Below are positions 900 to 59,496 of a DNA stretch of 64,000 bases, piece after piece. This DNA is from a bacterium (lineage in GTDB: Bacteria > Patescibacteriota > Minisyncoccia > UBA6257 > JAUSGH01). Each line of letters starts with the position of its first letter. Position 1 is the first letter of the stretch. The position numbers were made by a program, and so were the translations under genes. Location: the NCBI GenBank assembly GCA_030649055.1, contig JAUSGH010000007.1:1854-65853 (forward strand), given 5' to 3'. The notes beneath the pieces are model-generated. The model saw only the letters and a list, made by a program, of their open reading frames with translations. It had not been told where the DNA came from and ran no database searches.

Positions 900-3203
900 C
901 TAAAACTCCACCGCCTCCCCTCTCCGAAGTTTTGCGATGATGTCATTCCCCGCTTGCGCGAAGTCCGGCTGCTTTGCGATGATCGTTTCAAGTTCACGAA
1001 TCGCGTCAGCATTCCGCCCAAGCGTATGATACGTTGACGCGAGCTGAAGCCGATGACCAATATCGTCCGGGTTAACAATGATAAATGCTTTAAGCGTACC
1101 GGCGATGCGCGCCTGATTACCGGTTACTCTATACACTCGAAGCAGAAGTTCATCGGCAACATCAACTGTTCCAAGATGTTCCTTGAGCAACGCATCAACA
1201 ATGTCCTGATCGCCGTTTAATATATGCACCGCGGCAAGATTCATTCCGACCGCGCCGAAGTTTTTCGTTTTCTGATAAATAAACTCCATCGTCTCAACGG
1301 CTTTTGCTGTATTTCCCATCTGCAAATACGCGTCCGCGAGCTCAAAATACACCTGATGCTTCATCGGGGCGAGCTTCAACGCGGCGTCAAACGCCTCTAA
1401 CGCCTTGTCATACATGCCGACTTTGGAAAGAATAATCGCGAGGAAAAGCCGCGATCGTGGATCTGACGGATTCTCTGTCACCACTCGATCGGCGAGCTCA
1501 ATCGCCTGCCGCAACATTTGCGAACGAAACTCCGGAGTGAGGGAAGGTGCTACGCCTGCCGCGAGTGCAAAACGCGAATATTGCTCGGCAATTTCCATCC
1601 TCCCCAACGCCGCATCATAGGAAAGCGCGTTATTATATTCATCATACGCGCCCTGGATGTCTTGCGCGCTCTGCAGCTTCAATGCATTAAGGAGGTGCAA
1701 ATTCACAAGTAGCGGCCGGATGTTTAACGCGTACAGCGTAAGCGTGAATCCCACGACAAGAATCGCGGAAACCATTCCAATGGCTTCAATACTCGCGCTT
1801 GCTCGTTGCGCCACTAAAGGAGCGCCAGCCGTTCGCCGCTCGTCAAAACTTTCAGCATGCGCGAATGCTGTGCTTTGGATAAACGCGAGTAAAGCGAAAA
1901 ACACGGTGTAGGTCGCGATATTGTCAAACACAAAAAAGTTCTGCAGGACGTACGCGAAAAGAAGCCCAGAAATCACAATGCCTGCATGAAGTTCTCGCGA
2001 TGCTTCATATTCTATCGCGGTTGTATGCTGCTTGTCCGCCGCTTCACGCGCAAGCGCGAAGTTTTTCCATAACATCCCGACGCCGGTCACGAACATCGCG
2101 AAATACGAGATAAGTCCAAGAATACCCGCGTTGATCAGCCAATCAAAAACAATATTGTGCGAGCGGTCAAACCACGGCTCCTGCTGCCAAAGTTCCGTCT
2201 TATAGTATTTTGAGAATACAACGAGATAATTTTCCGGCCCCCAGCCCAACAATGGATGTTCCTTAAAACCTTCCCAGCTCATGTTCCAAATAGTGAAACG
2301 CGACGTAATCGTCCGCTCCCTGAAGGACATTGACGTGAGGCGTATCAACACGTCGCTTCCGCGCACGAAAGATGTATTCCTCGCCATCCAAAGTCCCGCG
2401 GGAACGATGATGAGCAACGCGAGAGCGGAAAAAATAGCGCGCCTCATGCGTTTTGAAACGGTGATATCCGTTCGCATAAAGATAAGGAAAAGTCCGCCAG
2501 CGAAAATGCTACCGAGAAGCAAAGCAAGTGTCGGGCCACGGCTTGCGGTAAAGTAGATGATGAGCAACGTGAAAAACGTCGCGGCAAGCAGGTAGTATCT
2601 CGTCCATTTGTTACGCGCGTATATCCAAAGCAACAGCGCGAACGCGACAACAAACATCAAATATGCGGCAAGATATGTCGGATTACCGATGGTTCCGTCG
2701 GTGCGGAATCCGCCCTGCGGAGAAATCAAATATCCGAGTTTTTGGAATAACGCGTACACGCCCTGCAGAAGTCCGGCAACAAGCGAACAGTGCAAGAACA
2801 CCATCCAATCTTTGCGCCGGAGTATATGCGAAAGCACAACGAAATACATTGCGAGATGAAGATAAGCAATCGCTCCTTCCATGCGCTCAAAGTTAGACCA
2901 AAAACTCCGCGTTGGGTTCTCGCCGAACACGGTCGCGAGAAGCACAACAACGACCCAGAGAAGCACGCTCCACATAAGTGGCGTCATGCGCGGCCGGTAT
3001 TTCGGATTAAATATCGCGAGCCAAATCCACGCAAAAAATGCAACTTCCACGAGCGCGCGGAATACAAACGCTTTTCCCGTGATGTACGGGAAAAACATAT
3101 TTTGGGCGATGAGGAGCGGAACAAAGGGAACGACGAATAAGGCTATCTTCGTAATCCAGAGCAAAACACGTTCAGTGGTTGATTGCATAATATTCAAAGA
3201 CAT
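900..3203 (-). CDS. O-antigen ligase-like (Wzy_C family) polytopic membrane protein fused to C-terminal TPR repeats
   Basis: 767 aa. N-terminal ~420 aa has about 10-12 hydrophobic helices with the Wzy_C/O-antigen-ligase-like pattern. C-terminal ~330 aa is tetratricopeptide-like (repeating A..Y...G....A motifs). Confidence 0.6.
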   Translation of the reverse strand: MSLNIMQSTTERVLLWITKIALFVVPFVPLLIAQNMFFPYITGKAFVFRALVEVAFFAWIWLAIFNPKYRPRMTPLMWSVLLWVVVVLLATVFGENPTRSFWSNFERMEGAIAYLHLAMYFVVLSHILRRKDWMVFLHCSLVAGLLQGVYALFQKLGYLISPQGGFRTDGTIGNPTYLAAYLMFVVAFALLLWIYARNKWTRYYLLAATFFTLLIIYFTASRGPTLALLLGSIFAGGLFLIFMRTDITVSKRMRRAIFSALALLIIVPAGLWMARNTSFVRGSDVLIRLTSMSFRERTITSRFTIWNMSWEGFKEHPLLGWGPENYLVVFSKYYKTELWQQEPWFDRSHNIVFDWLINAGILGLISYFAMFVTGVGMLWKNFALAREAADKQHTTAIEYEASRELHAGIVISGLLFAYVLQNFFVFDNIATYTVFFALLAFIQSTAFAHAESFDERRTAGAPLVAQRASASIEAIGMVSAILVVGFTLTLYALNIRPLLVNLHLLNALKLQSAQDIQGAYDEYNNALSYDAALGRMEIAEQYSRFALAAGVAPSLTPEFRSQMLRQAIELADRVVTENPSDPRSRLFLAIILSKVGMYDKALEAFDAALKLAPMKHQVYFELADAYLQMGNTAKAVETMEFIYQKTKNFGAVGMNLAAVHILNGDQDIVDALLKEHLGTVDVADELLLRVYRVTGNQARIAGTLKAFIIVNPDDIGHRLQLASTYHTLGRNADAIRELETIIAKQPDFAQAGNDIIAKLRRGEAVEF

Positions 3204-3239
3204 AGGACTTATAGGTCCTATAAGACTTATAAGTCCTAT
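3203..3239. promoter_or_regulatory. Near-palindromic tandem motif TAGGACTTATAGGTCCTAT / AAGACTTATAAGTCCTAT directly upstream of the ligase-TPR gene start; second copy at 59506-59540
   Basis: Read directly. Contains a TATAAG -10-like hexamer in minus-strand orientation ~25 nt upstream of the ATG at 3203. The 14-bp perfect palindrome GGACTTATAAGTCC recurs at 59515-59528 in the same position relative to another minus-strand gene start. Confidence 0.3.
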
Positions 3240-3244
3240 GTGTT

Positions 3245-3979
3245 CTATTTGTCAATAACTTCCGGTCCGTCGTACTCAACTTCATCATCGGTGAGCCGCC
3301 GGTACGGCTTCTCCCGCTCCAACTCCTCACCGACATGCGCGATGAGTCCCGGAAGGCGGGCAAGCACAAACACGCCGTTCCCCATGCGCGCCTGAATACC
3401 GAGCTCGGAAAGCAATACGGCAAACGCACCGTCAATGTTTAACGGAAGCAACTTGCCGGACTTCTTATTGAGCTCTTGGCCAAGCTCACCTGCCAGCGCC
3501 GCATATTTTCCCAAAAGCCCCAATGCTTTAGCGCGCTCAAATAATGCAGTAGTACGGGGGTCCGCGTCTTTATACACCTTATGCCCATAACCCGGCAATC
3601 GCTCGCCCTTAGCGGATAATTCGGCAACGATGGTTGCCGCATTCTTTCCGGATTGCAACAATTCGGCAAGCGCTTCAATAGCTCCGCCGTGATGTTTTCC
3701 AATCGTGAGAATCCCAGCCGCGAGCGCGGCGGTAAACGAAGCACCGGTGGATGCGGTGGTGCGCGCAACAAACGTTGAGGGCGCCTCAACGCCGTGCTCA
3801 GAGGCGGCAACAAGCATCGCGCCCAAAAGTTCCGCCTGTGGTTTCTCCGGCATTTTCCCCGTAAGCAACAAAAATATAATTTCCGGAAACGTCTTTGTGG
3901 CAATAAGCTCCGTCAGCTTGTAGCCGCGGATGTAGAGCTCGCCGTTCTTGTGAACGCTGATTGAAGTTTTCCATTTCAT
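3245..3979 (-). CDS. Small citrate-synthase-family protein (citryl-CoA lyase-like, ~27 kDa)
   Basis: 244 aa with the citrate synthase active-site region motif GYGHKVYK (compare GFGHRVY). Lacks the large N-terminal domain of true citrate synthases. Size matches citryl-CoA lyase / the ATP-citrate-lyase C-terminal module. Confidence 0.55.
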   Translation of the reverse strand: MKWKTSISVHKNGELYIRGYKLTELIATKTFPEIIFLLLTGKMPEKPQAELLGAMLVAASEHGVEAPSTFVARTTASTGASFTAALAAGILTIGKHHGGAIEALAELLQSGKNAATIVAELSAKGERLPGYGHKVYKDADPRTTALFERAKALGLLGKYAALAGELGQELNKKSGKLLPLNIDGAFAVLLSELGIQARMGNGVFVLARLPGLIAHVGEELEREKPYRRLTDDEVEYDGPEVIDK

Positions 3980-4035
3980 GGCATTTATTCAAGTATAGAG
4001 TATTGAGTATTAAGAAGACAGTATACACGCAGGGA

Positions 4036-4422
4036 CTAACTGTTATCGCGAGAACTTTTGACTAACCCAGTGATGAGTTTGTGGACGATAACGGTTTGCT
4101 GAGCAATGCTGCTAAAATCAAATTTGGAAATATATCCGACGTCGCGCGCTACAAGAAGCTGATTCTGAACTTCAGTGAGAGAACCTTGCGCCATGTCATA
4201 AAAACGGTTCTTTTCTATTCGACTCCGCCGAGAAAAACCCTCCGCGATGTTTGACGAAACCGAAACTGCTGCGCGCCGTAGCTGATTACTCAAACCAAAA
4301 AGTTCTTCCTTCGGAAAACTTTTCGTAAGACGGTAGACGATTACTACAAGCTCATGGGCCTTACGCCACGCCACCAAATCGGTGAATGACTGAATTTTCT
4401 CTTGAGATTTTTGCGATTCCAT
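4036..4422 (-). CDS. Four-helix-bundle protein (23S rRNA intervening-sequence-type protein family)
   Basis: 128 aa. Pattern W.KA..L.V.VY.....FPKEE.FGL..QLRRAA.S...NIAEG is characteristic of the TIGR02436-type four-helix bundle proteins. Confidence 0.6.
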   Translation of the reverse strand: MESQKSQEKIQSFTDLVAWRKAHELVVIVYRLTKSFPKEELFGLSNQLRRAAVSVSSNIAEGFSRRSRIEKNRFYDMAQGSLTEVQNQLLVARDVGYISKFDFSSIAQQTVIVHKLITGLVKSSRDNS

Positions 4423-4437
4423 ACTGTCTTCTCAATA

Positions 4438-5358
4438 CTATATACTCAATACCTTCTTAATGAGTCCCGGCACCTCATCCAAAATATCCGCCACCATGAC
4501 TCCCGCCGCACGAAGCGCCTTTACTTTTGACGCGTAACTCCCGCGGCCTTTGGAAACAATCGCGCCCGCGTGGCCGAGCACGGTTCCTTGCGGCAGGGTT
4601 TCCGTAAACTTTCCGGCGACAAGCGCGACAACAGGCTTCGTAAACTTTTTTTTGCGAATGAATTCGGCCGCAAGTTCTTCATAAGTTCCGCCAACCTCGC
4701 CGAAAAGCACCACCGCTTTGGTCTCCGGATCTTTTTCAAAAAGCTCCAACAGGTCGGCAAAGTCCGAACCGATAATCGCATCTCCTCCGATTCCGATGAC
4801 AGTGCTTTGTCCTAATTTTTCGCGCGAAAGCGTTGAAGAAATCTCCGCCGTCATTCCCCCGCTTTTTGAAATAACGCCGATATGGCCGGGCGTGAATACG
4901 TTTTTAATTTCGCCGCTTCCGATGCTTCCAATTTTCCCGAGTCCGGGTGAAATAATGCCGACCGACGACGGGCCGACGACGCGCACGCCGACACGACGCG
5001 CCGCCGCAACAATGTATGCCGCATCTTGTGCCGTCACATGCTCGGTCAGAATATCAATAAGCGGAATACCCGCGTCAATGGCTTCCAACGCGGCGTCTTT
5101 TACAAACGCAGCCGGCACCGTGATGAGCGAGGTGTTGATTTCGGGATGTTGTTGAAGCGCCTCAAACACGGCGTTATACACCGGAATTCCCTCCACGCTT
5201 TGCCCGCCCTTGCCCGGCGTTACTCCGGCAACAACCGCCGTGCCATAAGCCAGCATCTCCTTGCACGCGCGCGAACCCTCGTTGCCGGTTATTCCTTGTA
5301 CAAGCACACTCGTTTTTTTATCAATAAGTATTGCCATAGTTATTTTTTTCATTGTCAT
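4438..5358 (-). CDS. sucD: Succinyl-CoA synthetase alpha-subunit family protein (CoA-binding; could be citryl-CoA synthetase small subunit)
   Basis: 306 aa. Near-colinear with SucD: ILIDKKT.V.VQGITG, GVTPGKGG, SKSGGMT, GIGGD, and the phosphohistidine loop GHAGAIV. Confidence 0.85.
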   Translation of the reverse strand: MTMKKITMAILIDKKTSVLVQGITGNEGSRACKEMLAYGTAVVAGVTPGKGGQSVEGIPVYNAVFEALQQHPEINTSLITVPAAFVKDAALEAIDAGIPLIDILTEHVTAQDAAYIVAAARRVGVRVVGPSSVGIISPGLGKIGSIGSGEIKNVFTPGHIGVISKSGGMTAEISSTLSREKLGQSTVIGIGGDAIIGSDFADLLELFEKDPETKAVVLFGEVGGTYEELAAEFIRKKKFTKPVVALVAGKFTETLPQGTVLGHAGAIVSKGRGSYASKVKALRAAGVMVADILDEVPGLIKKVLSI

Positions 5359-5470
5359 CCTGAGTTCGCCAGCAGGCCGGTTGATTGATTATAAATAATA
5401 TATCCGAAGAGGTGCCCGCGGCCGACGAAGGATCTCTCGGAGATTCTTCGGCTCATCGCCTCAGAATGAC
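5354..5470. repeat. Palindromic repeat element, family B (GTCATYCTGAG ... GAAGGATCTC-GAGATTCTTCG ... TCAGAATGAC)
   Basis: Read directly. Terminal inverted repeats GTCATCCTGAG / CTCAGAATGAC. Internal palindrome GAAGGATCTCTCGGAGATTCTTCG. Related copies at 34274-34342 and 60624-60687. Confidence 0.6.
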
Positions 5471-5484
5471 ACTGTAGTCTTACT

Positions 5485-6594
5485 TTATTGTTTCGATGCT
5501 TTATTGCTTCGATACGCCAATGCTACGACGCGCTTCGCGCTCTCCGCCATTGATGTTTTTCCGTCAAACACAGTGAACCGATATCCTTCTTTTTTTGCGA
5601 CTTCTCGCAACATCCGGAACGCTTGCTGCCCCCGCGGACCGTCACGACGGATAACAATCGGAAATGTCGGCTTCGGTTTCACTTCGCGCAGCCCCTCAAT
5701 AAACCCAACCATGGTTTCGTAAATATCGGTGAAATTCGCCGTACCGCCGATGACCCACAGCCCCTTCAAGCCGTGGCGCGCGAGCACACGCTTTGTTAAA
5801 TCACGCACCACTTCCTTCGGCGGATTTCCGGAATATTCGGTATAGTTCGCCGGCCATCCGTTATATTTCAAGAGCGCGTCAATGTTTAAAAGCGACGCTC
5901 CGCCTCCCGAAGCCAAAATCGCGATGTCCCCATCCATATCAATAAACCTGCGTTCACCGGGTTTTATTTTTTCGTCATCCAAAACAACCTTCGCGTCCGC
6001 CGCAACAAACTTTCCGTCTGGGGTCTTCATCAGCGGATTAATTTCGGCAAGCAAGGCATATTCGCCGAAGAAACAATTCCATAAACTTTTGACAATCGGC
6101 ACGAGGCCGCCGACATCGGCAAACGGGATGCCGGCGCGGAGCAACGCGCTACGGATAAAAAATGGGTGCAATCCTCCGATGACGTCAACCGGAAACACCT
6201 CCGCTTTCTTTGTGCCTGTGCCGCCGGAAACGGTTGCGGCCAAAACCGGCGCGCGATGATCTGTGGAGTAACTGAAACTTATATAATATTCCGCCACTGC
6301 CGCAATTTTTTGCTCAACCAACACTTTTTTCACGCGCTCACCGCGCAGCGTTTTGGAGAGTAAATCGGCGACTGCCGTTTTTGCCGCGCGCTCATCATCG
6401 GCAAAAAGAATTCCGCCACTGCGCGCGCGATCGCCAAAAGTAACCTGCGCCTTCACCGCGTATGGGCCGGAAAACTTCGGCCCGACACCAGGACGGGAAA
6501 CAAGCATGCCCTCCGGCACCAAAATTCCATACTTTTTGAATAACTTTTTTCCTTCGTGTTCGAATAAATTCATAAGGTATTCCTTCGATTTCAC
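5485..6594 (-). CDS. sucC: Succinyl-CoA synthetase beta-subunit family ATP-grasp protein (could be citryl-CoA synthetase large subunit)
   Basis: 369 aa. N-terminal ATP-grasp (NL.E.EGK.LF..YGI.VP...) and C-terminal CoA-ligase domain (DGDIAILASGGGASLLNIDAL) as in SucC. Confidence 0.8.
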   Translation of the reverse strand: MKSKEYLMNLFEHEGKKLFKKYGILVPEGMLVSRPGVGPKFSGPYAVKAQVTFGDRARSGGILFADDERAAKTAVADLLSKTLRGERVKKVLVEQKIAAVAEYYISFSYSTDHRAPVLAATVSGGTGTKKAEVFPVDVIGGLHPFFIRSALLRAGIPFADVGGLVPIVKSLWNCFFGEYALLAEINPLMKTPDGKFVAADAKVVLDDEKIKPGERRFIDMDGDIAILASGGGASLLNIDALLKYNGWPANYTEYSGNPPKEVVRDLTKRVLARHGLKGLWVIGGTANFTDIYETMVGFIEGLREVKPKPTFPIVIRRDGPRGQQAFRMLREVAKKEGYRFTVFDGKTSMAESAKRVVALAYRSNKASKQ

Positions 6595-6641: not shown

Positions 6642-8123
6642 TTACACAATCGTCCGCATAATCATGCGTAGCGTGTGATACGGACCGGTCGCGAACCGCC
6701 GGCCGATAAAAATGATTCCGGCAATGTATGCAAGCGCCGGAACGCCAAGCAACGCAATGAAGAGCGGCGCGCTCAACTTCGCGCCATACATATATAACGG
6801 CGCGGCAGCGAGCATAGTCATCAGTGTTGCGCCGAAGATGACCGCGATCGGAATCTTCACGTCGGCAAACCGCAGCCCTAAATAGCGGAAAGACCAGTAA
6901 CTCGCGATAAGCGCCAAGGCGAAACCGTTGATAAGCATAGCAACCGCCGCTCCGTAAATACTGAAGTACCGCGTGAGCACCAAAAGCAGCGGCGCGGAAA
7001 TGAAAAATTGCGCGACCGACATTTTGAACCGCACATCAGGAAATCCCGCGCCGTCAAGCAATGGATACGTAATCACCGCGAATCCTTCAAACGTGAGCGC
7101 AACAACGAGCACCTTCATCGCCGCAACCATACCCAGCCACTTCGCTCCCAAAAGAATCTGCGCGAGCGGTTCACCAAAAAGTAAAATAATCACGAGAAAC
7201 GGAATCATCGTGAGGAGCGCGATATCAAAACTCCGCAAAAATCCTTCGCGCAGTTTTTGCATGTCCCCTTGAATGCGCGCGTATGCCGGAAATCCGACTT
7301 TCGTCACGATCGTAAAAAGCGCCGAGGACGGCAATGAAGCGATGCTGTTCGCGCGAGAATACAATCCCAAATTCGCCGGACCGGAAAAACGGCCGACAAT
7401 AGACGATTCAACAAGATAATTGATTTGCCCCAAGGCATTTTGCGCCATGACCCACCCGCCGTACGAACTCAAGTCCCGCAAGCGCCCGAATTGGAAAGAA
7501 AACTTTGGCCGGTGCGGATGCCCCGCGTATTGCACTACAACCCCCGCAATGTACTGCGCGACGTAACCAAAAAAAAGCGCGGCGGCAGTTGGATGCAGAA
7601 ACGCGAAAGGTATCGCCGTCGCCGTAAACGCAAGCTGACCGGCAATGTCGCGCATAAACAGCGTCCGGAAATTCATCTCCTTAAAAAAGAACATGTTGCC
7701 GAGGTTGCTCAAGGACTGGATGACCGTAAGAATTCCGCCGTAACGCAACAGCGCAAGCGCGGTCGGATCAGTGATGTGAAAAAATATCGCGACAAACGGA
7801 GCGGCGAGATAAATAAGGACGGCGATGCCGATAGCTCTCAAAAAATTAAACGTCCAGTACACGTCAAGATAGGCACGAATATCTCCCTGCCGCTGGATGA
7901 TCGCGTTTTCAAACCCCGGCATTGAAGCGGTGTTCAAAATGCCGACGAACATCAGAATGATGGTGATGATACCGTAGTCATCGGGCGCAAGCGTCCGCGC
8001 CAAAACAAAAAAAGTCCCGAAGCCGACGATCTTCTGGGCAACGAGTCCCAACCCCGACCACTTCCCTCCTTGTATTGCTTTATGAAGCGTCCCTTCGGTT
8101 GATTCCATTGAGATAGATATCAA
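6642..8123 (-). CDS. wzx: Wzx-type oligosaccharide flippase (MOP/polysaccharide biosynthesis protein family)
   Basis: 493 aa, ~12-14 TM helices. N-terminal K..I.GG.WSGLG....K..GF.T..VLAR.L.P.DYG pattern is typical of Wzx/RfbX. Confidence 0.7.
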   Translation of the reverse strand: MISISMESTEGTLHKAIQGGKWSGLGLVAQKIVGFGTFFVLARTLAPDDYGIITIILMFVGILNTASMPGFENAIIQRQGDIRAYLDVYWTFNFLRAIGIAVLIYLAAPFVAIFFHITDPTALALLRYGGILTVIQSLSNLGNMFFFKEMNFRTLFMRDIAGQLAFTATAIPFAFLHPTAAALFFGYVAQYIAGVVVQYAGHPHRPKFSFQFGRLRDLSSYGGWVMAQNALGQINYLVESSIVGRFSGPANLGLYSRANSIASLPSSALFTIVTKVGFPAYARIQGDMQKLREGFLRSFDIALLTMIPFLVIILLFGEPLAQILLGAKWLGMVAAMKVLVVALTFEGFAVITYPLLDGAGFPDVRFKMSVAQFFISAPLLLVLTRYFSIYGAAVAMLINGFALALIASYWSFRYLGLRFADVKIPIAVIFGATLMTMLAAAPLYMYGAKLSAPLFIALLGVPALAYIAGIIFIGRRFATGPYHTLRMIMRTIV

Positions 8124-8242
8124 TATAACCGATTTTTCACTCTAATGGTAACCATCCGGCCGTTTGACTAAAAAACTAAAAAGATTTAGTATATCGCTAG
8201 TACCGAAACAGATTTGCTAGAACCTTTTGAAAGGGTAGGCCT

Positions 8243-9199
8243 ATGTCTTGGCAGGTACCGGTGGTGCTGCGGCTCGTGGTCGCATACGTCATCGCGCAGC
8301 CGCTCATCAAGAAACTCACAAAGGAGAACGATGAGTCCCGGACGCAGAAGTTCCTGTTGCAATTCCTCGTCTGTCTGCTGCTTGCGTCCGCATTCGCCAT
8401 CTGGAGCGGCGACTGCAACTTCGACAGAAACGCCCGCGTCCTCTTCGCCGTCGGCATCGCAAATGCCTTCGGCGCGTTCTGTCAGTGGAAGTCCATCGGA
8501 TACTCGCTCTCCAAGAACGCGCTCTTCACGGTGTGGGATGACATCATCGCGATGACACTCTGTTTCACGGTGCTCCACGAAGGTAAATTCCTAAACCCGT
8601 GGATCATCGCGGGAATCGTCACGAGCTTCATCGCGATCGTCTGCTTCTTCCGGCATGGATGGCGGAAAATGCAGAAAGCGGAGACATCGGGAAGCGCAGA
8701 AAGCAACTCGTCAACTCCTCCGGCCTTCTACGCATGCGTCGCCGGCTACAGCATCATCTGGGGAGTAGCGGTGTTCCTTATGCGCAAGTTCGCGGTGGAG
8801 GGCGTGTCACTTGGAACGTTCCTCGTCGGTTGGTACGGCGGTGCGGCAACAGGGGCTATGCTCATCTTCCTCGCGGGAGTGGAGCTGAACCCCAAATGCA
8901 CGCAGCCGCTCACAAAAAAGAGCATCCAATGGACGTGTGTGCTCTCCGTCTCCATCATCGCATCACTACTGCTCCAATACTGGTCGCTGAGGAAGGCGCC
9001 GCTCGTCATCGTACAGCCGATCTTCCTTACCGGGGAAATGATCATCCCGGCGCTCATCGGCCTCTACTTCTTCAAGGAAAAGAAAGATCTGGACAAGGCC
9101 GAACGCTGGTACTTCGCAATCGGCATCACCGGCGGCATACTGCTCTTTGCGCACGACGCGCTGCAGCAACTTGCAACGCGGCTCATCGCCTGGTTCTAG
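8243..9199 (+). CDS. Polytopic membrane protein, DMT/EamA-like transporter candidate
   Basis: 318 aa, ~10 predicted TM helices arranged as two similar halves. No decisive motif. Confidence 0.35.
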   Translation: MSWQVPVVLRLVVAYVIAQPLIKKLTKENDESRTQKFLLQFLVCLLLASAFAIWSGDCNFDRNARVLFAVGIANAFGAFCQWKSIGYSLSKNALFTVWDDIIAMTLCFTVLHEGKFLNPWIIAGIVTSFIAIVCFFRHGWRKMQKAETSGSAESNSSTPPAFYACVAGYSIIWGVAVFLMRKFAVEGVSLGTFLVGWYGGAATGAMLIFLAGVELNPKCTQPLTKKSIQWTCVLSVSIIASLLLQYWSLRKAPLVIVQPIFLTGEMIIPALIGLYFFKEKKDLDKAERWYFAIGITGGILLFAHDALQQLATRLIAWF

Positions 9200-9207
9200 G
9201 CGACCGA

Positions 9208-9252
9208 TGACCGGCCCCAGAGAGTTTCTCTCTGCGGGCCGGTTTCATTTTT
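9208..9252. terminator. GC-rich hairpin plus T-run between convergent genes (bidirectional terminator candidate)
   Basis: GACCGGCCCCAGAGAG-TTTC-TCTCTGCGGGCCGGT followed by TTCATTTTT, between the + gene ending at 9199 and the - gene ending at 9257. Confidence 0.5.
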
Positions 9253-9256
9253 GATT

Positions 9257-9931
9257 CTAATACTTCCTTATCTTCGCGATGAGATCGCGATGTTCCGGAT
9301 ACAGCGCGCGAAGCTCGCGAAGTGCGTCCTCCTGCCAGCCAGTTTCTTTCGTCACGCTTTCGGGCCTGCGGATATAAGTGAATAGCGGCTTTGGAATCCG
9401 AAAGCCCTTCCAGCGGCCGAGCGTCCGCAGCAGCAAATCATATTCGGGAAATTTCAGACCTTCACGGTAACATCCTTCCGCGGCTAACCGCTCCCTGCGA
9501 TACATCATCCCGATGGCGATGCTTGAAAATATATTTTCGGTGCTGACGACACGCGTAACGTCGCCCATGCGCTCCTCGTAATCGGAATACACGAAATCAA
9601 TCTCGGGATTGGCGTCAAGCACATCGGTTGTCTCACGCAAAAGGTCCGGCCCGAACGCATCGTCGCTATCAAGCTTGGTGACATAGGTGCCAACCGCCGC
9701 GCGGAACCCGGCATTCGCCGCGCCGACAAAACCGCGGTTCGCCTGCCGGATGACGCGGATAGCATTGCCGAACCGCGCGAGTATCTGCGGCGTCTCATCG
9801 GTGGAGCCGTCGTCAATAACGACGATCTCGTAATCGCTTTTCGGAAACTGCTGCGTGAGCGCACTCTGTAACGAGCGTTCAATAAACGCAGCGGAGTTAT
9901 ATGCCGTAATGACGATTGATGCTTTTATCAT
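9257..9931 (-). CDS. Glycosyltransferase family 2 (soluble, short)
   Basis: 224 aa. VITAYNSA...L.S...Q, DYEIVVIDDGSTD, and a DXD-type KLDSDD motif. Confidence 0.8.
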   Translation of the reverse strand: MIKASIVITAYNSAAFIERSLQSALTQQFPKSDYEIVVIDDGSTDETPQILARFGNAIRVIRQANRGFVGAANAGFRAAVGTYVTKLDSDDAFGPDLLRETTDVLDANPEIDFVYSDYEERMGDVTRVVSTENIFSSIAIGMMYRRERLAAEGCYREGLKFPEYDLLLRTLGRWKGFRIPKPLFTYIRRPESVTKETGWQEDALRELRALYPEHRDLIAKIRKY

Positions 9932-11031
9932 AAGCCCCCTTGTATATGGTCGCGCTGTAACGGCGTCCCGAACGCAATATCGCTCGCGGCTTTTTTGCCG
10001 ATGACCTTATCGTAAAACTTCGTTTCAAGACCGAACGCCGGCCGCACATCCCGGACATTTTCTTTGGTGAACAGTTCACCTTTTTTGATATCCTTCCCCG
10101 CAAACAGCGACCGGCGCCACCGTTTATTGTATTCTTCCAACTTATTATTCGGCCCATAATGCACCTCGCCAAGCATCGTAGCCGGAACCGTTTCCTTCTC
10201 GCCGCGTTTTTCTAAGTCACGAATTTTTGCAATCATTTCTTTAAGTTCGTGCGGCTCCAAAGAAAACTCAGCATCCGGCCCGCCGGTTTTTCTATCTAAA
10301 ATCAAGTGCTTCTCAACAATAGACGCGCCCGCACGCACCGCCATCACTGGGATCTCAACGCCTGCGTTGTTATCGGAAAATCCGCTGACGACCCCGAAAC
10401 GTTCGCGGATGTCCTGAATGGTTTTCAAATTCATATCTTCCCACTTCGGATTGCCGGAGTATCCCGTCACGCAATGCAGTATCGCGATATCCTTCGCGCC
10501 ATACGCGCGGAGCGTATCAATGGCAAACCGCGCCTCGTCTTCCGATGCGTAACCGATGGATATAATCACGGGCTTTCCGGTACGCGCGACTTTTTTGAGC
10601 AACACAAAATCCGTCGCCTCGTATGACGCGATTTTGAACGCCGGCACATCCATTTTGGTCAAAAAATCCACGGCGGTTTCGTCAAACGGAGTTGAAAAAA
10701 GCATGACGCCAAGTTTATCCGCAAGCTTTTTCAACTTCGGTTGCCATTCCCAAGGCGTATACGCGGTTTGATACAGCTGATATAACGTCTTACCTTTCCA
10801 CAATTCCGGATTATCTTCGCCACCGACTCTAAACCACTCTTTGTCACAGTTTAAGGTCATCGTATCCGGCGTATATGTTTGGAGTTTTACTGCGTCAACG
10901 CCCGCCGCTGCGGCGGCCTCCACCAGGCGCACGGCCTCTTCATATTTTTGATGATGATTACCCGAAAGCTCCGCAACGATAAAACACGGATTCCCCGGAC
11001 CGATTTTTTTATTGCCGATGTTCATAGTCAT
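9928..11031 (-). CDS. pseI: Nonulosonic acid synthase (pseudaminic/legionaminic/N-acetylneuraminic acid synthase family, NeuB/PseI-like) with C-terminal SAF domain
   Basis: 367 aa. IGPGNPCFIVAELSGNHH motif, TIM-barrel NeuB pattern, C-terminal SAF-like domain. 4-nt overlap with the downstream GT2. Confidence 0.85.
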   Translation of the reverse strand: MTMNIGNKKIGPGNPCFIVAELSGNHHQKYEEAVRLVEAAAAAGVDAVKLQTYTPDTMTLNCDKEWFRVGGEDNPELWKGKTLYQLYQTAYTPWEWQPKLKKLADKLGVMLFSTPFDETAVDFLTKMDVPAFKIASYEATDFVLLKKVARTGKPVIISIGYASEDEARFAIDTLRAYGAKDIAILHCVTGYSGNPKWEDMNLKTIQDIRERFGVVSGFSDNNAGVEIPVMAVRAGASIVEKHLILDRKTGGPDAEFSLEPHELKEMIAKIRDLEKRGEKETVPATMLGEVHYGPNNKLEEYNKRWRRSLFAGKDIKKGELFTKENVRDVRPAFGLETKFYDKVIGKKAASDIAFGTPLQRDHIQGGL

Positions 11032-51423: not shown

Positions 51424-52284
51424 CTAAATAGGCTTCCTTTTACCATCAATTTTTTTCTTCTCCATCCTCTCTAGTTGTTTCACCTCTTTCTTCACTTCTT
51501 TAATGTGTTTTTCTGTTGGCAGATACTCTGGCGTCGTCCCACCAATTTCCTTAATGGTCTGCCGGACTTTTCCGCCCACCATAAAATGTGTTTGGGCGGC
51601 CAAACTTTCTCCTTGTATGTTATCCTTTTTTAATTTCTCATCGGTTTGAGTAATACGAAACAAATTAGCCGCCAACTCGGTAGAACCAGCCCTATCTAAT
51701 AATTCTCCCTTGTTTATTCCCTTTCTACGTTCAATCTCCGATAATGGCATCCCATAAAGACCTCTATATCCAGCATCATTAAACAACCCGAACTTGCTCA
51801 CCCCAGCTTGCCTTGCCGTCTTGAAAAGTTTCTTGTTGTAGTCAGATACTTCGCTGCGAATGAATAATCTCTTTTCGGCATCGGGTAACTGTTCAAAAAC
51901 TTCCTGCCTTCTTGTCTGAATAGCAAAATAGGTCTGAGCCATCGCTATTTCGATTTTTTTAGGGTCTCCATTCTGAGCAATAAGATAGCAGGCGTAGCGA
52001 TCGAGTTTATAATTGACCACTTCTCGAACCGTATTTGAGCCAATATTGACCATTTTACTGAGCTTAGTAAAATGGTTATCCACATCCTGACCGCTGTTAA
52101 TACAAGCTCTAGCCGCTCTCGCAATCACATCCTCTGCATTTTGCCATTTTTCATAACCCAAAATAGGCAACAACTCCCGCGCATCCCAATACTCAACCCC
52201 ATTCTCGTCAACATTTTTGATGCCCTCAAAATCCTTATGAATGCTTGGCGGCGCTATTTCATTGGTCATAAGTTTATTTTGCAC
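51424..52284 (-). CDS. dinD: DNA-damage-inducible protein D homolog (DinD family)
   Basis: 286 aa, colinear with E. coli DinD: RYACYLIAQNGDP, AQTYFAIQTRRQE, EKRLFIR.E, GSTELAANLFR.TQTDEKLK, VGGKVRQTI.E.GGT.PE.LPT. GC ~43%, well below its neighbours. Confidence 0.8.
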   Translation of the reverse strand: MQNKLMTNEIAPPSIHKDFEGIKNVDENGVEYWDARELLPILGYEKWQNAEDVIARAARACINSGQDVDNHFTKLSKMVNIGSNTVREVVNYKLDRYACYLIAQNGDPKKIEIAMAQTYFAIQTRRQEVFEQLPDAEKRLFIRSEVSDYNKKLFKTARQAGVSKFGLFNDAGYRGLYGMPLSEIERRKGINKGELLDRAGSTELAANLFRITQTDEKLKKDNIQGESLAAQTHFMVGGKVRQTIKEIGGTTPEYLPTEKHIKEVKKEVKQLERMEKKKIDGKRKPI

Positions 52285-52304
52285 ATTAAAAAGAAAATTT
52301 GCAA

Positions 52305-52346
52305 TGTATAAAAGGATCGGCCGCGGAGAGATTCTCTCCGCGGCCG
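52305..52346 (-). terminator. GC-rich hairpin (CGGCCGCGGAGAGA / TCTCTCCGCGGCCG) with adjacent U-tract; terminator candidate after the RHH gene
   Basis: Read directly: arms at 52318-52331 and 52333-52346. AT-rich tract 52307-52316. Confidence 0.45.
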
Positions 52347-52354
52347 TACGCTAC

Positions 52355-52567
52355 TTACGTCACGATGACGAGCTCCTTCAGGATGGACTTGGCATCCCGC
52401 GAAGAGATGACGAGACGCTTGCCCTCGTCCTTCGCCTTCTTCGCTTCGTTGAGAAGCGCGATCGCCATCCGGAAGACTGCTGCCTTGGACTTCTTTCCGA
52501 ACGCTACGCGGAGCTCTTCGAGCAGAGCGTCCACCTTGTCATCCACCTGCATCGTAAACATCTTCAT
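52355..52567 (-). CDS. Small ribbon-helix-helix-like DNA-binding protein (CopG/Arc family candidate)
   Basis: 70 aa from MKMFTMQVDDKVDALLEELR. Beta-strand then two helices. Good RBS GGAAGGAG 8 nt upstream. The longer ORF to 52834 is a GC-rich read-through artefact. Confidence 0.45.
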   Translation of the reverse strand: MKMFTMQVDDKVDALLEELRVAFGKKSKAAVFRMAIALLNEAKKAKDEGKRLVISSRDAKSILKELVIVT

Positions 52568-52635
52568 CGTATTCTCCTTCCAATACTGGCCCGGACAATA
52601 TCCGCCGCAACAAAGTGCTGCGAGCGGCCCCGTAG

Positions 52636-53160
52636 CTACAGGTTTCCCTTCACGCGCCGACTCTCCAACCGCCGCCTGAACCATCCGCGCAGCCCGAGGA
52701 TATCCAGGATCGGAAACGCGATGGTGAGGATGAGGTCCGCCACCGCGAGCGACGGCCTCGGGATTCCCCACGCAATGTGGTGCTTGACGCCCCGCTCGCG
52801 GCAGAGCCACCACACGCGCGGGAAATGAAGCCACGTAGAGATGACGACGAGCATCAACCGTTCACGTCTCGCCACATCCAACGCGTAGTCTAATTGCCCC
52901 ATGGTCTCGTACGCCTCGCGCACTACGACGAGATTGCTGATGCCAAGCTCCTCCGCCGCCGCAACGTAGATGTCCTCCTCGTGCCGCTCTCCGGCAACCT
53001 GGAGGTTGCTCAAGATAAGCACGGGTGCCTGTCCGTACCGTGGCTGGAGTCGCTTGGCCAGCACCATACTCCTGTACCAGTCCTGCCACGTCCTCGGCCC
53101 GACACGTCCTTTCGCGCAAGGCCCCTTGGTCAACGGAAGAAGAACAAAATTCTCTTTCAA
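52636..53160 (-). CDS. DUF218 (YdcF/ElyC/SanA-like) domain protein with C-terminal hydrophobic segment
   Basis: 174 aa. APVLILSNLQVAGE...EDIYVAAAEELGIS..NLVVVREAYETMGQLDYA...RLMLVVISTWLHFPRV matches the DUF218 core pattern. Confidence 0.5.
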   Translation of the reverse strand: MKENFVLLPLTKGPCAKGRVGPRTWQDWYRSMVLAKRLQPRYGQAPVLILSNLQVAGERHEEDIYVAAAEELGISNLVVVREAYETMGQLDYALDVARRERLMLVVISTWLHFPRVWWLCRERGVKHHIAWGIPRPSLAVADLILTIAFPILDILGLRGWFRRRLESRRVKGNL

Positions 53161-53266
53161 CGCGCACCTCCTTTTGTTGGCTTGATTCCTCTACAAGTGC
53201 TGACAAGAGGATAGCATTTTAGAATAACGGGGTCAACATCTTTGCCATATGACATCAAAATGAAAC

Positions 53267-53298
53267 GGACCGTACACCTCCGAAGAGATGTACGGTCC
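53267..53298 (-). terminator. Hairpin (GGACCGTACA-N12-TGTACGGTCC) downstream of the Ubl gene
   Basis: Read directly; followed on the minus strand by GTTTCATTTTGAT. Confidence 0.35.
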
Positions 53299-53322
53299 GT
53301 GCTGGTTCTGACTTCCGGCTCG

Positions 53323-53571
53323 CTATGAGCCCCGCGGGCGCTCCGACACGGCGACGACGGGCTTGTCCTTCGCCTCCAGCGCGTCCTTCGGACCCACGTG
53401 GGTCGTGAGCTTGGCCGGCTTGCCGTTCATCGTGAGGTCCATGTTCTTCACGTCGATCCCCGCGGCCTCGCACACCTCCGCGACAGAGGCGCCGCTCTCC
53501 TCGACCTCGACGTCCTTCGTGGTGCTCTTGCCTTGCGTCGGTACCACCTTCACTTTGATCTTCATCGTCAT
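53323..53571 (-). CDS. Small beta-grasp ubiquitin-like (MoaD/ThiS-like) protein, C-terminus ...ERPRGS (no terminal GG)
   Basis: 82 aa. MKIKVKVVP....K.VEVEE..SVAEV....GID.....L..NGKPA pattern of Ubl/ThiS-fold proteins. Directly upstream is an E1-like gene. Confidence 0.45.
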   Translation of the reverse strand: MTMKIKVKVVPTQGKSTTKDVEVEESGASVAEVCEAAGIDVKNMDLTMNGKPAKLTTHVGPKDALEAKDKPVVAVSERPRGS

Positions 53572-53636
53572 CTCCTTCCGATAATGAAACGGAACTACCG
53601 GTCTCCGATGCGTTTCCTCCTTTCATTCTCACAGAC

Positions 53637-54299
53637 CTAGTCAATCATCTCCATGACGCCGGTCAGCGCCTTGTGATGGCGCTTCTTCTTTCCATGCTGC
53701 CACCAATATACCAGATCCGCGGCAACTGCGGAAGCAGCACTCATTGATGCGTACACGATGCCATGTCTCCCGCACATCGGATGCGCGGTTTCCTTGGTCG
53801 TATACGCAAGATGATGTTCGTAGTACGCAATGTCGTCCGGATCGCACGGAGCGATAGCAAAAACCCAGACGAGCTCCTCGGCAGTCCGCGTGTCGATCAA
53901 AATGTCCACCCTGGGTTGCATCTTGACGTTACGCCAAACCGCCTGCCGAGCTTCCATGGTATCCACACAGCACACCACTGCGTCGCGCAGCGGCTCGTTC
54001 TCGTAGAACTGCCGACGGGCATCAATGACGACACCCGACGCTTCCAGAACGATGTCGCGCAACGCTTCCACCTTCGGCCGGCCAAGGTCACACGGCCGGT
54101 AGACGGACATCGGAATGTTGTGCGATTCAACGTAGTCGTCGTCGATGACCGTGAGTTTCGTTACTCCCATCTTGGCCAAGGTGACGGCAACGTATCCGCC
54201 GACGGCACCCGCGCCGATGATGGTTACGCTTCTCGCAGTCATCGCGTTGAAGAGGTTGTGCTGTCCCGAGAGATTCATCGTCGGTTCTACCACGGTCAC
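53637..54299 (-). CDS. ThiF/MoeB/HesA-family E1-like adenylyltransferase (minimal, ~220 aa)
   Basis: VTIIGAGAVGGYVAVTLAKMGV..LTVIDDDYVE.HN nucleotide-binding motif, GRPKVEAL; candidate Cys in HPMCGRHG. Confidence 0.75.
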   Translation of the reverse strand: MTVVEPTMNLSGQHNLFNAMTARSVTIIGAGAVGGYVAVTLAKMGVTKLTVIDDDYVESHNIPMSVYRPCDLGRPKVEALRDIVLEASGVVIDARRQFYENEPLRDAVVCCVDTMEARQAVWRNVKMQPRVDILIDTRTAEELVWVFAIAPCDPDDIAYYEHHLAYTTKETAHPMCGRHGIVYASMSAASAVAADLVYWWQHGKKKRHHKALTGVMEMID

Positions 54300-55771
54300 C
54301 TCCTTTCGTCAGGTTCGGCCAGCCACTCCTCCAACGGATGCAGTGTGGTCTCCGGCGTATAGGTGTTAAGCCAACGCATGACGACGAGCGCCGCCTCCGC
54401 GAAACGGAACTCACTCATGTACTTCGCGATGGCAACCGTCGCATTTCCGAAGCAAGCCAAACTAATCCGGCTGACGTGCGGATGATGGTGCCCAAGCGAA
54501 TGCCTCGGCGCCTCGCTCCACACTCCGATCTTGCCGTTCGGGTCCAGACGGATCGTAAACGGTCCCAGATTGTACCGGCGGCCGTTGTCTTCCAGGATGA
54601 TGTCCGTGGTCACAATGTGCACGCCACTATCGACAATGCGCACTGCCGCCACGCCATCCATCTTCGTAATCTCGTCAAGTTCCATCGGAAGACGCTTGTG
54701 CAAGCCACGGACGAATTCCGAATCCTGCATCGTCTTCACGCGGAGGGTGAACAGCTGTTGTTTGCGCGACTCATCCGCCAATTTATCCTCCGCGTCCTGA
54801 ATATCGGCGGACGTCACCTGCATCGCCTCGAGAAGAACAGCAAGCACCTTCTGATCGTGCAGCTTGTCTGCCAGCTCGTTTTCCTCGCTCCGAATCAAGG
54901 CATTAATGCGTTCCAGCGTTGTCTGAAGCTCTCCCAGAATCGCAGCGGCTTGGATAATGACAAACCCCGAAAAGTCCTCGGCGTTCGTCTCCACGATCGG
55001 TTCCGTTTTTCTGTCGGACGCTTTCACGAGATCACGATACATGCAGCCGAGCAGCTTGCGGAAGATCGTCTCACGCGCCGCCTCGCCGTGAAAAGCGGTA
55101 TGCGTAAGACAGAGCTGATAATAGTTGGATCCGAGCACCTGGAAGATTGGGGTTACGCCATCAATGATGAGCCGTCCCCGTCCGCGAGTAGGCATGTTCA
55201 CAAGACGCGTCTGCCCGTCCTCCCACACCTGAACTCCGAAAAGCGTTTCCACCACCATGCCGGAATTGTAAACACCGGGCGGACGGGCCTGGCAGAAGAG
55301 ATGCACCGTTCCAGCTTTCTCCGAGAACGGCGGGTTGCTAATGGTGGTACTGTAACAGTAGACGAAGTGCAGACCGGCAAAACGCGAGAGCGCCTCCACC
55401 TGCCGCATGTCGGACTCCACCATCGGCTTCGCTTGGATGAACCCGCCGGACGTAGGTGTTTCGTCCACGTTGAGCAGCTCGGCATTCGGCTCTTTTGCCA
55501 CGAGCAACGCGAATGATGCGACATCAATCTCGCAGGATTCGAGCACCAACTCACGTCCCTGCTCGCGGCCGCGCCGCTGCAACATCTCCACCGCTTCGTT
55601 GCTGGCCGCCTCACCGGTGAAGGTGAGAAGGTCCACGATGATGTCAAAGTCATTGGAAACCACCGTCACGCGCTTCGTCGCAGTAGCCGTCGGCAGCTCA
55701 ACCCCGAGCCACCGCATGATGAGCACCGGCACCGCGAAGGCGTACCCGGATTCAAACAGTGGGCTTGTCAT
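54296..55771 (-). CDS. Large protein of unknown function with a C-terminal E2/UBC-like active-site motif (HPHVSRISLAC); candidate E2-like conjugating enzyme fusion
   Basis: 491 aa. C-terminal GHHHPHVSRISLACFGNAT resembles the UBC HPN(V/I)...G.ICL catalytic loop. Start codon overlaps the E1-like gene by 4 nt. The antisense 392-aa ORF is Arg-rich junk. Confidence 0.35.
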   Translation of the reverse strand: MTSPLFESGYAFAVPVLIMRWLGVELPTATATKRVTVVSNDFDIIVDLLTFTGEAASNEAVEMLQRRGREQGRELVLESCEIDVASFALLVAKEPNAELLNVDETPTSGGFIQAKPMVESDMRQVEALSRFAGLHFVYCYSTTISNPPFSEKAGTVHLFCQARPPGVYNSGMVVETLFGVQVWEDGQTRLVNMPTRGRGRLIIDGVTPIFQVLGSNYYQLCLTHTAFHGEAARETIFRKLLGCMYRDLVKASDRKTEPIVETNAEDFSGFVIIQAAAILGELQTTLERINALIRSEENELADKLHDQKVLAVLLEAMQVTSADIQDAEDKLADESRKQQLFTLRVKTMQDSEFVRGLHKRLPMELDEITKMDGVAAVRIVDSGVHIVTTDIILEDNGRRYNLGPFTIRLDPNGKIGVWSEAPRHSLGHHHPHVSRISLACFGNATVAIAKYMSEFRFAEAALVVMRWLNTYTPETTLHPLEEWLAEPDERR

Positions 55772-55927
55772 TTCAAACTCTCCTTCATGTCAAAGGGCTG
55801 TTTCATCGCCGCGAGTACACCTCGCACGATGCTGGCTAAATAATAATGAAATAAAAGGCGGGCGTCAAGCCGCTGCAGAGTTGCTCGCACCTTCGCCATT
55901 CACACGATATTCGTTATACTGAAAGCG

Positions 55928-58755: not shown

Positions 58756-59496
<741 letters not shown>

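Follow-up and report, generated by a model that had tools for sequence, protein, structure and literature searches.

A putative three-gene operon for ubiquitin-like protein conjugation in a Patescibacteriota genome

A 64,000-nucleotide (nt) stretch of Patescibacteriota DNA (GenBank assembly GCA_030649055.1, contig JAUSGH010000007.1, positions 1,854 to 65,853 of the forward strand; here called the window) carries three adjacent minus-strand genes that we designate A, B, and C. Gene A encodes a 491-residue protein, E2L, with a C-terminal motif like that of ubiquitin-conjugating enzymes (E2s). Gene B encodes a ThiF-type enzyme of the ubiquitin-activating kind (E1), and gene C encodes a small beta-grasp ubiquitin-like protein (Ubl). 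We think it fairly probable that the three genes, at positions 53239 to 55914, make up a self-contained operon that encodes an undescribed kind of ubiquitin-like protein-conjugation cascade. The evidence is a strictly conserved gene trio, ThiF motifs in the E1, membership of the Ubl in beta-grasp families, an E2-like motif in the correct register, invariant cysteines in the E1 and E2L, an invariant kind of Ubl terminus that ends in serine, and an insertion/deletion at the locus. An earlier note on this DNA, made from the sequence by a model, had drawn attention to the segment as a group of five genes.

The trio is constant wherever we found it. A protein of ~440 to 560 residues, a ThiF protein of ~218 residues, and a protein of 71 to 98 residues were encoded in the same order and on the same strand, tightly packed, in all 23 loci that we fetched plus the window (the 23 loci contain ~20 distinct E1 sequences, and the window is counted additionally). 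The order is kept down to 22 to 25% identity, including in groundwater, sediment, and TARA marine samples. An all-against-all comparison of the flanking open reading frames (ORFs) revealed no recurrent fourth gene, and the sole recurrence was synteny between close genomes. The flanks themselves vary. They include ftsA and ftsZ, parAB with a sigma factor gene (Candidatus Paceibacter), and genes for the CCA-adding enzyme, SpoU, and RuvB.

The description of gene B in the earlier note as a minimal ThiF/MoeB-type E1 is well supported by its match to Pfam ThiF. The likely start is the GTG at 54293 (218 residues), 5 nt after an AGGAGG, which is ribosome-binding-site spacing. Because this AGGAGG lies within the end of gene A, A and B would be translationally coupled. 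An hhalign comparison with E. coli ThiF (sequence entered by hand) gave a probability of 96.7% over residues 10 to 125, with GxGxxG, DxD, RPK, and CxDxMxxR in register and the Mg-binding aspartate also aligned. The Rossmann motif begins at residue 29. In the 20 distinct orthologs the residues G-G-G, D-D, K, D, and R are invariant, and across loci the protein is a single ThiF domain of 218 to 226 residues. Its relatives in the PDB, detected through the N-terminal half only and at E values of at least 6e-9, are TcdA, UBA5, NAE1, ThiF, PaaA, MccB, BubCD, and Cap2. All NCBIfam scores are far under the family cut-offs, including those for ThiF (59 bits versus 159), MoeB (35 versus 266), and TIGR03736, the PRTRC ThiF model (41.5 versus 144.75). 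The PADLOC 'E1-E2' models and the NCBIfam 6A-MBL cap2_3 model match only the Rossmann part (residues 14 to 121).

The candidate catalytic cysteine of the E1, C176, is in a C-G-x-H motif ~40 residues after an invariant DTR. The motif is invariant in the 20 distinct E1s, including a marine member with 22% identity. By this spacing, C176 appears to be the equivalent of ThiF Cys184 and UBA5 Cys250; the local alignments themselves end at residue 125.

E2L is not covered by current models. Pfam (2025), NCBIfam (2026), PADLOC (2023), and PHROGs returned nothing for the 491-residue protein or for 10 distant relatives. An AlphaFold2 model built from 106 sequences had a predicted local distance difference test (pLDDT) score of 92.2 and a predicted template modeling (pTM) score of 0.88. 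An earlier model from 7 sequences was poor (pLDDT of 63), and Foldseek with that model was meaningless. The predicted elements are an alpha/beta region (residues 10 to 251), a coiled-coil hairpin, a helix (352 to 369), a beta-meander (374 to 418), the HPH loop, Cys440, and two helices (444 to 453 and 457 to 468). Only H430, P431, H432, C440, G442, and Y471 are invariant in the 106 sequences. The invariant core is therefore HPH-x7-C-x-G, with G442 just downstream of the HPH...C motif, and the motif itself is present in 154 of 155 family proteins. The family consensus, PHPHIxxxGxxCFGNA...KIEEWP, can be set beside the E2 signature HPNIxxxGxIC; in E2s the catalytic cysteine comes ~7 to 8 residues after an HPN-type motif.

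To this extent E2L looks like an E2, and profile comparisons point the same way. When a 34-sequence profile of residues 350 to 491 was searched against all PDB sequences (E≤10), all nine matches were to UBE2L3/UbcH7 entries or engineered variants of it. The match is colinear over 89 residues, from helix 1 through the meander, and places HPH on HPN and C440 on Cys86. With a smaller C-terminal profile, built from 6 sequences, no PDB match was obtained. Against six canonical E2s (sequences entered by hand), hhalign aligned 86 columns, again in this register, with a probability of 86.8% (P = 4.3e-6). With all 106 E2L sequences the values were 76.6% and 2.1e-5. For comparison, hhalign was also run with the E2 alignment reversed and in 20 column-shuffled versions, with two other segments of E2L (N-terminal and coiled-coil), and with the E1 and Ubl alignments. 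These controls scored 8 to 20 (P≥0.016), whereas the true pair scored 37 to 40. Furthermore, the predicted secondary structure coincides with helix 1 and strands 1 to 3 of UbcH7 in the aligned register. We therefore agree with the earlier note that the C-terminal loop is UBC/E2 like (UBE2L3 is the sole PDB molecule matched, and the hhalign controls are clean), and from the sequence we consider a UBC-like domain with catalytic Cys440 likely at the E2L C terminus.

The remainder of E2L is presumed to be a binding or scaffold region, at least in its N-terminal alpha/beta part, for which there were no relatives among PDB sequences or Pfam families. The idea that this half is a second, degenerate UBC/RWD domain was ruled out by hhalign against E2 (P≥0.11). 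Two length variants were seen in the family. A 32-residue insertion in the coiled-coil hairpin (residues ~291 to 322, window positions 54800 to 54900) is present in the E2L of the window and in P0002, which is closest to it, but not in the other close homologs. Proteins P0123 and P0143, of 732 to 756 residues, have an additional N-terminal region of ~400 residues with no Pfam match.

The likely start of gene C is the ATG at 53565 (80 residues), which has better ribosome-binding-site spacing and is also the NCBI call (P0160). A profile search collected 56 proteins, which are conserved along their whole length. Among 55 aligned members, Pfam matches were to SAMP2 (35 members; best E value, 1.3e-6), Ub-Mut7C (20), DUF348 (11), ThiS (9), and TGS (3), all of which are beta-grasp families. 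Therefore, the proposal of the earlier note that the 82-residue ORF encodes a beta-grasp Ubl is sound. It had added that the protein, which ends in RGS, might need processing. This is unlikely. Serine is the last residue in 55 of the 56 proteins, which stop exactly there, and Gly-Ser are the last two in 51; the consensus is (S/T)(E/A)RPxGS followed by the stop codon, without extension. The single exception ends in DDDPTVSV without the ERPxGS tail and may be truncated, and the remotest cassette that we examined has a Ubl ending in TERASGS. The tails that are removed from Ubl precursors differ in length and sequence, and an invariant single serine is therefore better regarded as functional than as a cap. 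Judging from these termini, trimming of the serine seems unlikely.

Together, these features suggest the following pathway. The E1, which is likely to be homodimeric as ThiF and MoeB are, would bind the 80-residue Ubl and adenylate the carboxylate of its unprocessed terminal serine (ERPxGS). C176 in the C-G-x-H motif would then accept the Ubl as a thioester and hand it to C440 in the UBC-like domain of E2L, where the HPN triad reads HPH, with H432 replacing the asparagine. E2L might act as an E2/E3 hybrid, modifying a target lysine without a separate ligase (E3), and its N-terminal alpha/beta domains and coiled-coil hairpin might pick the target, providing target binding or oligomerization. 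Because there is no peptidase in the system, the Ubl would be neither trimmed nor its conjugation reversed by an operon-encoded enzyme.

Several points weigh against a conjugation cascade. The match of the E2L profile to UBE2L3 has an E value of 0.3, which is not significant alone, and the canonical E2 and E. coli ThiF sequences used in hhalign were entered by hand. Whole-protein fold searches with E2L were swamped by the coiled coil and did not confirm a UBC fold. Pfam UQ_con and the Prok-E2 models, profiles of the kind suggested in the earlier note, did not match E2L. The E1 is without the usual SNLxRQ arginine at the aligned position. Ubl conjugation cascades use a C-terminal glycine (usually Gly-Gly), and here 55 of 56 proteins end in serine. 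To our knowledge, all characterized Ubl and sulfur-carrier proteins terminate in glycine (glycine or alanine in the cyclic-oligonucleotide-based antiphage signaling system, CBASS), and an activated serine end is not among them. H424, H430, H432, and C440 cluster and could alternatively be a metal site. Finally, nothing in the genomic neighborhoods points to a target.

Some of these points fit a different chemistry. The E1 could act on the terminal serine without conjugation, in the manner of MccB or PaaA, or the HPH...C cluster could bind metal in a large enzyme or scaffold that is not an E2. The serine in 55 of 56 homologs, the presence of MccB and PaaA among the PDB relatives of the E1, and the fold search that did not confirm UBC are all compatible with this. 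However, the presumptive substrate is a folded 80-residue beta-grasp protein that is conserved throughout, not a short peptide, and the E1, with its Rossmann motif from residue 29, has no N-terminal peptide-clamp (RRE) domain. Moreover, E2L is in register with E2s in its HPH-x7-C spacing and over 86 to 89 aligned residues. We regard this explanation as unlikely.

A sulfur-carrier pathway is slightly less likely still. The Ubl would become a thiocarboxylate through ThiF/MoeB/TtuC-like adenylation, with the 491-residue protein as a cysteine sulfur acceptor or transferase. In NCBIfam and Pfam, the E1 best matches ThiF, MoeB, and TcdA-type enzymes, the nearest families of the Ubl are SAMP2 and ThiS (one homolog was named ThiS by JGI), and SAMPs and Urm1 double as sulfur carriers and modifiers. 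Even so, the E1 scores are far under the equivalog cut-offs, and the Ubl ends in Gly-Ser, whereas the active sites of sulfur-carrier enzymes accommodate Gly-Gly. No ThiG, ThiH, MoaE, TtuA, or rhodanese gene is beside ~20 cassettes, and the constant third partner is E2 like. The earlier note had named a consistent linkage of E1 homologs to cofactor sulfur-carrier pathways as grounds for refuting its reading, and this was not seen in these loci.

Conjugation by the three proteins is therefore the reading that we prefer, and it can be compared with known systems. Bil operons co-encode a stand-alone Ubl, a cysteine E2, and a cysteine E1 without an E3, and the E2 is proposed to choose the targets (PMC11601596, PMC10557695). 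The cassette would be similar in having a Ubl, an E2-like protein, and an E1 together and no E3. However, every Bil system (BilABCD) includes BilC, a JAB peptidase that trims the Ubl so that it ends in glycine, whereas no such gene is in or next to the cassette in the window or the other loci, and the cassette Ubl ends in Gly-Ser. The Bil E1 is multidomain (inactive and active adenylation domains and a CYS domain), whereas the cassette E1 is one domain of ~218 residues. The E2-like domain of the cassette is at the end of a 491-residue protein, and the PADLOC models miss both E2L and the Ubl.

Bub operons (6E/DUF6527) use a tyrosine oxyester on the E1 and a serine oxyester on the E2, have no catalytic cysteines, and include a DUF6527 serine protease and a Ubl ending in glycine (PMC11601596). 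As in the cassette, the operon contains a Ubl gene and encodes an E1 that is minimal, of the homodimer type, and akin to those of the ThiF and UBA5 kind; BubCD was one of the PDB matches to the cassette E1. The Bub E2 is also noncanonical, in that it is without the last pair of UBC helices, which we count as a likeness. Unlike Bub, the cassette has invariant C176 and C440, no BubE-type protease, and a Ubl ending in serine.

Type II CBASS Cap2/Cap3 and the 6A to 6D operons have E2-E1 fusions and/or JAB, usually with a CD-NTase or metallo-beta-lactamase (PMC1779556; PMC10557695). The cassette resembles these systems, the latter described by Iyer et al. in 2006, in that bacterial E1 and E2 homologs are together. 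However, it has no E2-E1 fusion, JAB, CD-NTase, or metallo-beta-lactamase. In keeping with the earlier note, no JAB, CD-NTase, or ThiG/MoaE gene adjoins the cassette in the window or in ~20 other loci. Thus, the cassette resembles Bil, Bub, and CBASS in outline and fails the defining features of each.

More distant comparisons were also made. The single-domain ThiF-type enzyme with a predicted crossover-loop cysteine and the small ThiS/SAMP2-like beta-grasp protein recall ThiS-ThiF, MoaD-MoeB, and SAMP-UbaA. Those pairs have no E2, a Gly-Gly end, and cofactor or tRNA-thiolation neighbors, whereas the cassette has an obligatory E2-like partner and a Gly-Ser end. PRTRC systems differ in that they have A to F proteins and a ParB-like gene rather than three genes, and the E1 is under the TIGR03736 cut-off. 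Unlike MccB and PaaA, the ThiF-like enzymes of ribosomally synthesized and posttranslationally modified peptide (RiPP) pathways, the cassette E1 has no RRE domain, and its partner is folded rather than a short precursor peptide. In UBE2O, one of the eukaryotic E2/E3 hybrids, the UBC domain comes after large regions that bind substrate and after a coiled coil, all in one polypeptide. The predicted layout of E2L (N-terminal domains, coiled-coil hairpin, and UBC-like domain) is similar in architecture only. There is no detectable sequence relation outside the UBC core, E2L is much smaller, and it has HPH for HPN.

Each of the characterized bacterial relatives (CBASS Cap2/3, Bil, and Bub) includes a peptidase and activates a Ubl or substrate whose C-terminal residue is glycine (glycine or alanine in CBASS). 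If our reading is true, the cassette is a further, simpler three-protein design with no processing or deconjugating enzyme, a serine-ended modifier, and the E2 within a larger protein that probably chooses the target. Ubl chemistry would then extend beyond the glycine rule. The cassette would then bear on how strict the E1 requirement for a C-terminal glycine is and on the minimal parts needed for protein conjugation. Patescibacteria have few recognized regulatory or immune systems, and this would be a protein-tagging system for very reduced genomes, whose targets might be phage or host. An antiviral defense role is possible by analogy with Bil. The site in the window, where a DinD homolog that is also a PADLOC defense candidate (PDC-S13) alternates with a ParE gene, hints at accessory or defense content; at the other loci its neighbors are housekeeping genes of small genomes.

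The family is common enough for comparative study. In an exhaustive profile search for E2L, the number of cluster representatives was 1636 with a threshold of E≤1e-3, 479 with 1e-10, and 102 with 1e-30; these are 50%-identity clusters in the case of the 479, and the counts at E≤1e-3 may include coiled-coil noise. Close relatives of the 491-residue protein numbered only 7 among 5.8 billion clustered proteins. The labeled carriers are Candidatus Saccharibacteria, Candidatus Paceibacter, one metagenome-assembled genome (MAG) labeled Gammaproteobacteria, and unclassified 'bacterium' records, so the taxonomic spread rests on few labeled MAGs. More tentatively, at a little less than even chances in our estimation, this could be a widespread peptidase-free pathway, with a serine-activated Ubl, a minimal cysteine E1, and an HPH...Cys E2/E3 hybrid, in the ultra-small Patescibacteria (Saccharibacteria and Paceibacteria) and other uncultivated bacteria. 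The database copies that we checked are 'hypothetical protein' or unnamed. In full-text searches of the literature, neither this system nor any Ubl system of Patescibacteria or serine-terminated Ubl was found to have been described. A phage origin received no support, since two pattern sets found no relatives in IMG/VR contigs, although the E1 weakly resembles phrog_15670.

Individual loci differ in detail. In a Candidatus Saccharibacteria MAG (L003, positions 8001 to 10355) the cassette is between ftsA and ftsZ, within the cell division gene cluster. A variant in L015 and L016 (4817 to 7216) has an E2L of 534 to 556 residues, an E1 called at 181 residues, and a 71-residue Ubl ending in SARPQGS. 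It has parAB on one side and a sigma-70 gene on the other, an arrangement syntenic with that of the Candidatus Paceibacter locus L009.

Table 1. Positions of the cassette genes, their predicted parts, and neighboring features in the window
Feature	Position	Strand	Remarks
Insertion/deletion unit, 2.68 kb	53239..55914	-	Promoter, genes A, B, and C, and terminator; 33 bp instead in L024
Sigma-70-like promoter of cassette	55840..55868	-	TTGACG, 17 nt, TATTAT; 10/12 matches; ~70 nt 5' of ATG 55771
Gene A (E2L), 491 residues	54296..55771	-	ORF; carries GHHHPHVSRISLAC at residues 427-440
E2L residues 1-251, two alpha/beta domains	55019..55771	-	Near-invariant RPPG (163-166), GRG (197-199), and Q211
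E2L residues 264-349, antiparallel coiled-coil hairpin	54725..54982	-	Predicted (AlphaFold2)
E2L residues 350-491, UBC/E2-like domain	54299..54724	-	Helix, beta-meander, HPH loop, Cys, two helices
E2L motif H428-H-H-P-H432...C440	54452..54490	-	HHHPHVSRISLAC; catalytic cysteine predicted to be C440
Gene B, minimal ThiF-type E1, 220-residue ORF	53637..54299	-	IGAGAVGG; Pfam ThiF, E = 1e-19, above cut-off
E1 Cys176 in C-G-x-H motif	53772..53774	-	Predicted thioester-forming cysteine of crossover loop
Gene C, beta-grasp Ubl, 82-residue ORF	53323..53571	-	C-terminal SERPRGS, then stop
Intrinsic terminator closing cassette	53265..53300	-	16-bp stem, then T run
Promoter-like site of DUF218 gene	53208..53236	-	Separate from cassette; whole DUF218 feature 52636..53236
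Gene D, DUF218-like, 174 residues	52636..53160	-	DUF218, E = 4.9e-4, under Pfam cut-off
Gene E, ribbon-helix-helix (RHH)-like, 70 residues	52355..52567	-	RHH_1, E = 5e-3, under cut-off
Terminator hairpin after RHH gene	52318..52346	-	Common to DUF218 unit; RHH gene plus terminator 52318..52567
DinD/PADLOC PDC-S13 homolog, context only	51424..52284	-	NF008573, E = 1.5e-101; PDC-S13, E = 8e-106

The earlier note had described a GC-rich segment of ~3.5 kb with five co-directional genes, adding to the cassette a DUF218-like gene (D) and an RHH-like gene (E). This was borne out. The five ORFs at 52.3 to 55.9 kb are all on the minus strand and contain the motifs that it listed (Table 1). The GC content from 52315 to 55870 is 0.580, versus 0.510 elsewhere in the window, and the 3.56-kb stretch richest in GC begins at 52301. 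GC at third codon positions (GC3) is 0.71 to 0.93 in the five genes, versus 0.60 ± 0.05 in the other ORFs (n = 36). The reading frames were said to overlap or abut, which is correct for the first two genes, the only overlapping pair, and incorrect for the remainder. Between genes C and D there is a strong terminator (53300 to 53265) followed by a promoter-like site, and therefore the five genes form two transcription units.

We also compared the window by blastn with a related genome, L024 (GCA_900218045.1). Its glycan locus is colinear with the window at 75 to 88% DNA identity, with three differences. Window positions 59000 to 55915 correspond to L024 positions 2917 to 5890, and 53238 to 52637 correspond to 5923 to 6539, with 33 bp between them in L024. 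The block from 53239 to 55914 is missing from an otherwise colinear locus and is therefore an insertion/deletion unit. The RHH gene (~52636 to 52350) is absent in L024 between the DUF218 stop codon and the DUF218 terminator. At the position of DinD, L024 has genes for a 68-residue protein and a ParE toxin.

With the terminator and promoter between genes C and D, the insertion/deletion, the constant trio order, and the absence of a recurrent fourth gene, we conclude that the functional unit is three genes (A, B, and C), not five. The earlier note had instead favored a five-gene defense-island module with the DUF218 and RHH proteins as functional partners. The co-directional arrangement and uniformly high GC3 of the five genes could suggest this, as could the adjacent DinD homolog at a variable hotspot. 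However, genes D and E are in a separate transcription unit, and the RHH gene is a separate insertion/deletion. The DUF218 gene is at the same site in L024, which has no cassette, with equally high GC3. Furthermore, no homolog of either gene was near any other cassette (~20 loci). A five-gene module is thus very improbable.

The DUF218 gene appears to belong to its surroundings. It is 80% identical at the nucleotide level in the two genomes, with a GC3 of 0.81 in L024. Its product scores 20.5 bits against PF02698, versus a gathering threshold of 27.6, and precomputed annotation assigns PF02698 to 7 of 19 homologs. The genes around the cassette encode GT87, PMT_2, and GT2 proteins, epimerases, an aminotransferase, and a nucleotidyltransferase, and DUF218 proteins would suit such an envelope glycan locus. 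Therefore, the compositional island of the earlier note, although its GC excess is real, has two components. One is the insertion/deletion unit of 2.68 kb with its three genes (GC content of 0.576, versus 0.510 in its flanks), and the other, next to it, is a DUF218 gene that is native and GC rich in its own right. Small accessory genes turn over at this place.

Of 13 loci compared, 12 had a cassette that exceeded its flanks in GC content, the difference being 0.013 to 0.083, and the cassette followed host flank GC contents of 0.42 to 0.65 (noted for L001, L003, L004, L009 to L011, L015, L020, L021, L023, L026, and the window). The GC excess is therefore largely a property of the cassette genes themselves. 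Together with the GC3 of the DUF218 gene in L024, this led us to reject GC excess alone as proof of recent transfer; the evidence of gain or loss at the locus is the L024 insertion/deletion, not composition. No integrase or transposase gene is within the 2.68-kb insert, and flanking repeats of the mobile-element type were not found, except for a possible TTGAC(G/C)CC duplication. The sequences TTGACGCC (55861 to 55868) and TTGACCCC (53229 to 53236), which contain the -35 boxes of the two promoters, are at the two ends of the insert, whereas L024 has one TTGACACC only. The pair may be a target-site-like duplication.

A few minor observations concern the rest of the window. No tRNA gene or Rfam family was found in it. 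A 318-residue ORF at 8243 to 9199 on the plus strand, with no Pfam match, has a GC3 of 0.78, which is as deviant as that of the cassette. The DinD site has identical flanks in the two genomes, namely, the DUF218 terminator and a GT2 gene. Enclosed by them are DinD in the window (51424 to 52307; GC content of 0.42) and the genes for the 68-residue protein and ParE in L024 (6590 to 7095). This site looks like a hotspot for small accessory genes within the glycan locus. On either side of the RHH insertion/deletion (52350 to 52636) there is a copy of an imperfect direct repeat with the sequence TACGG(G)GCCGC. Finally, the 36-nt translation start regions of the RHH gene (52560 to 52595) and the Ubl gene (53558 to 53593) are 81% identical (GGAAGGAGA..ACGATGAAGAT), which could reflect chance or a common origin.

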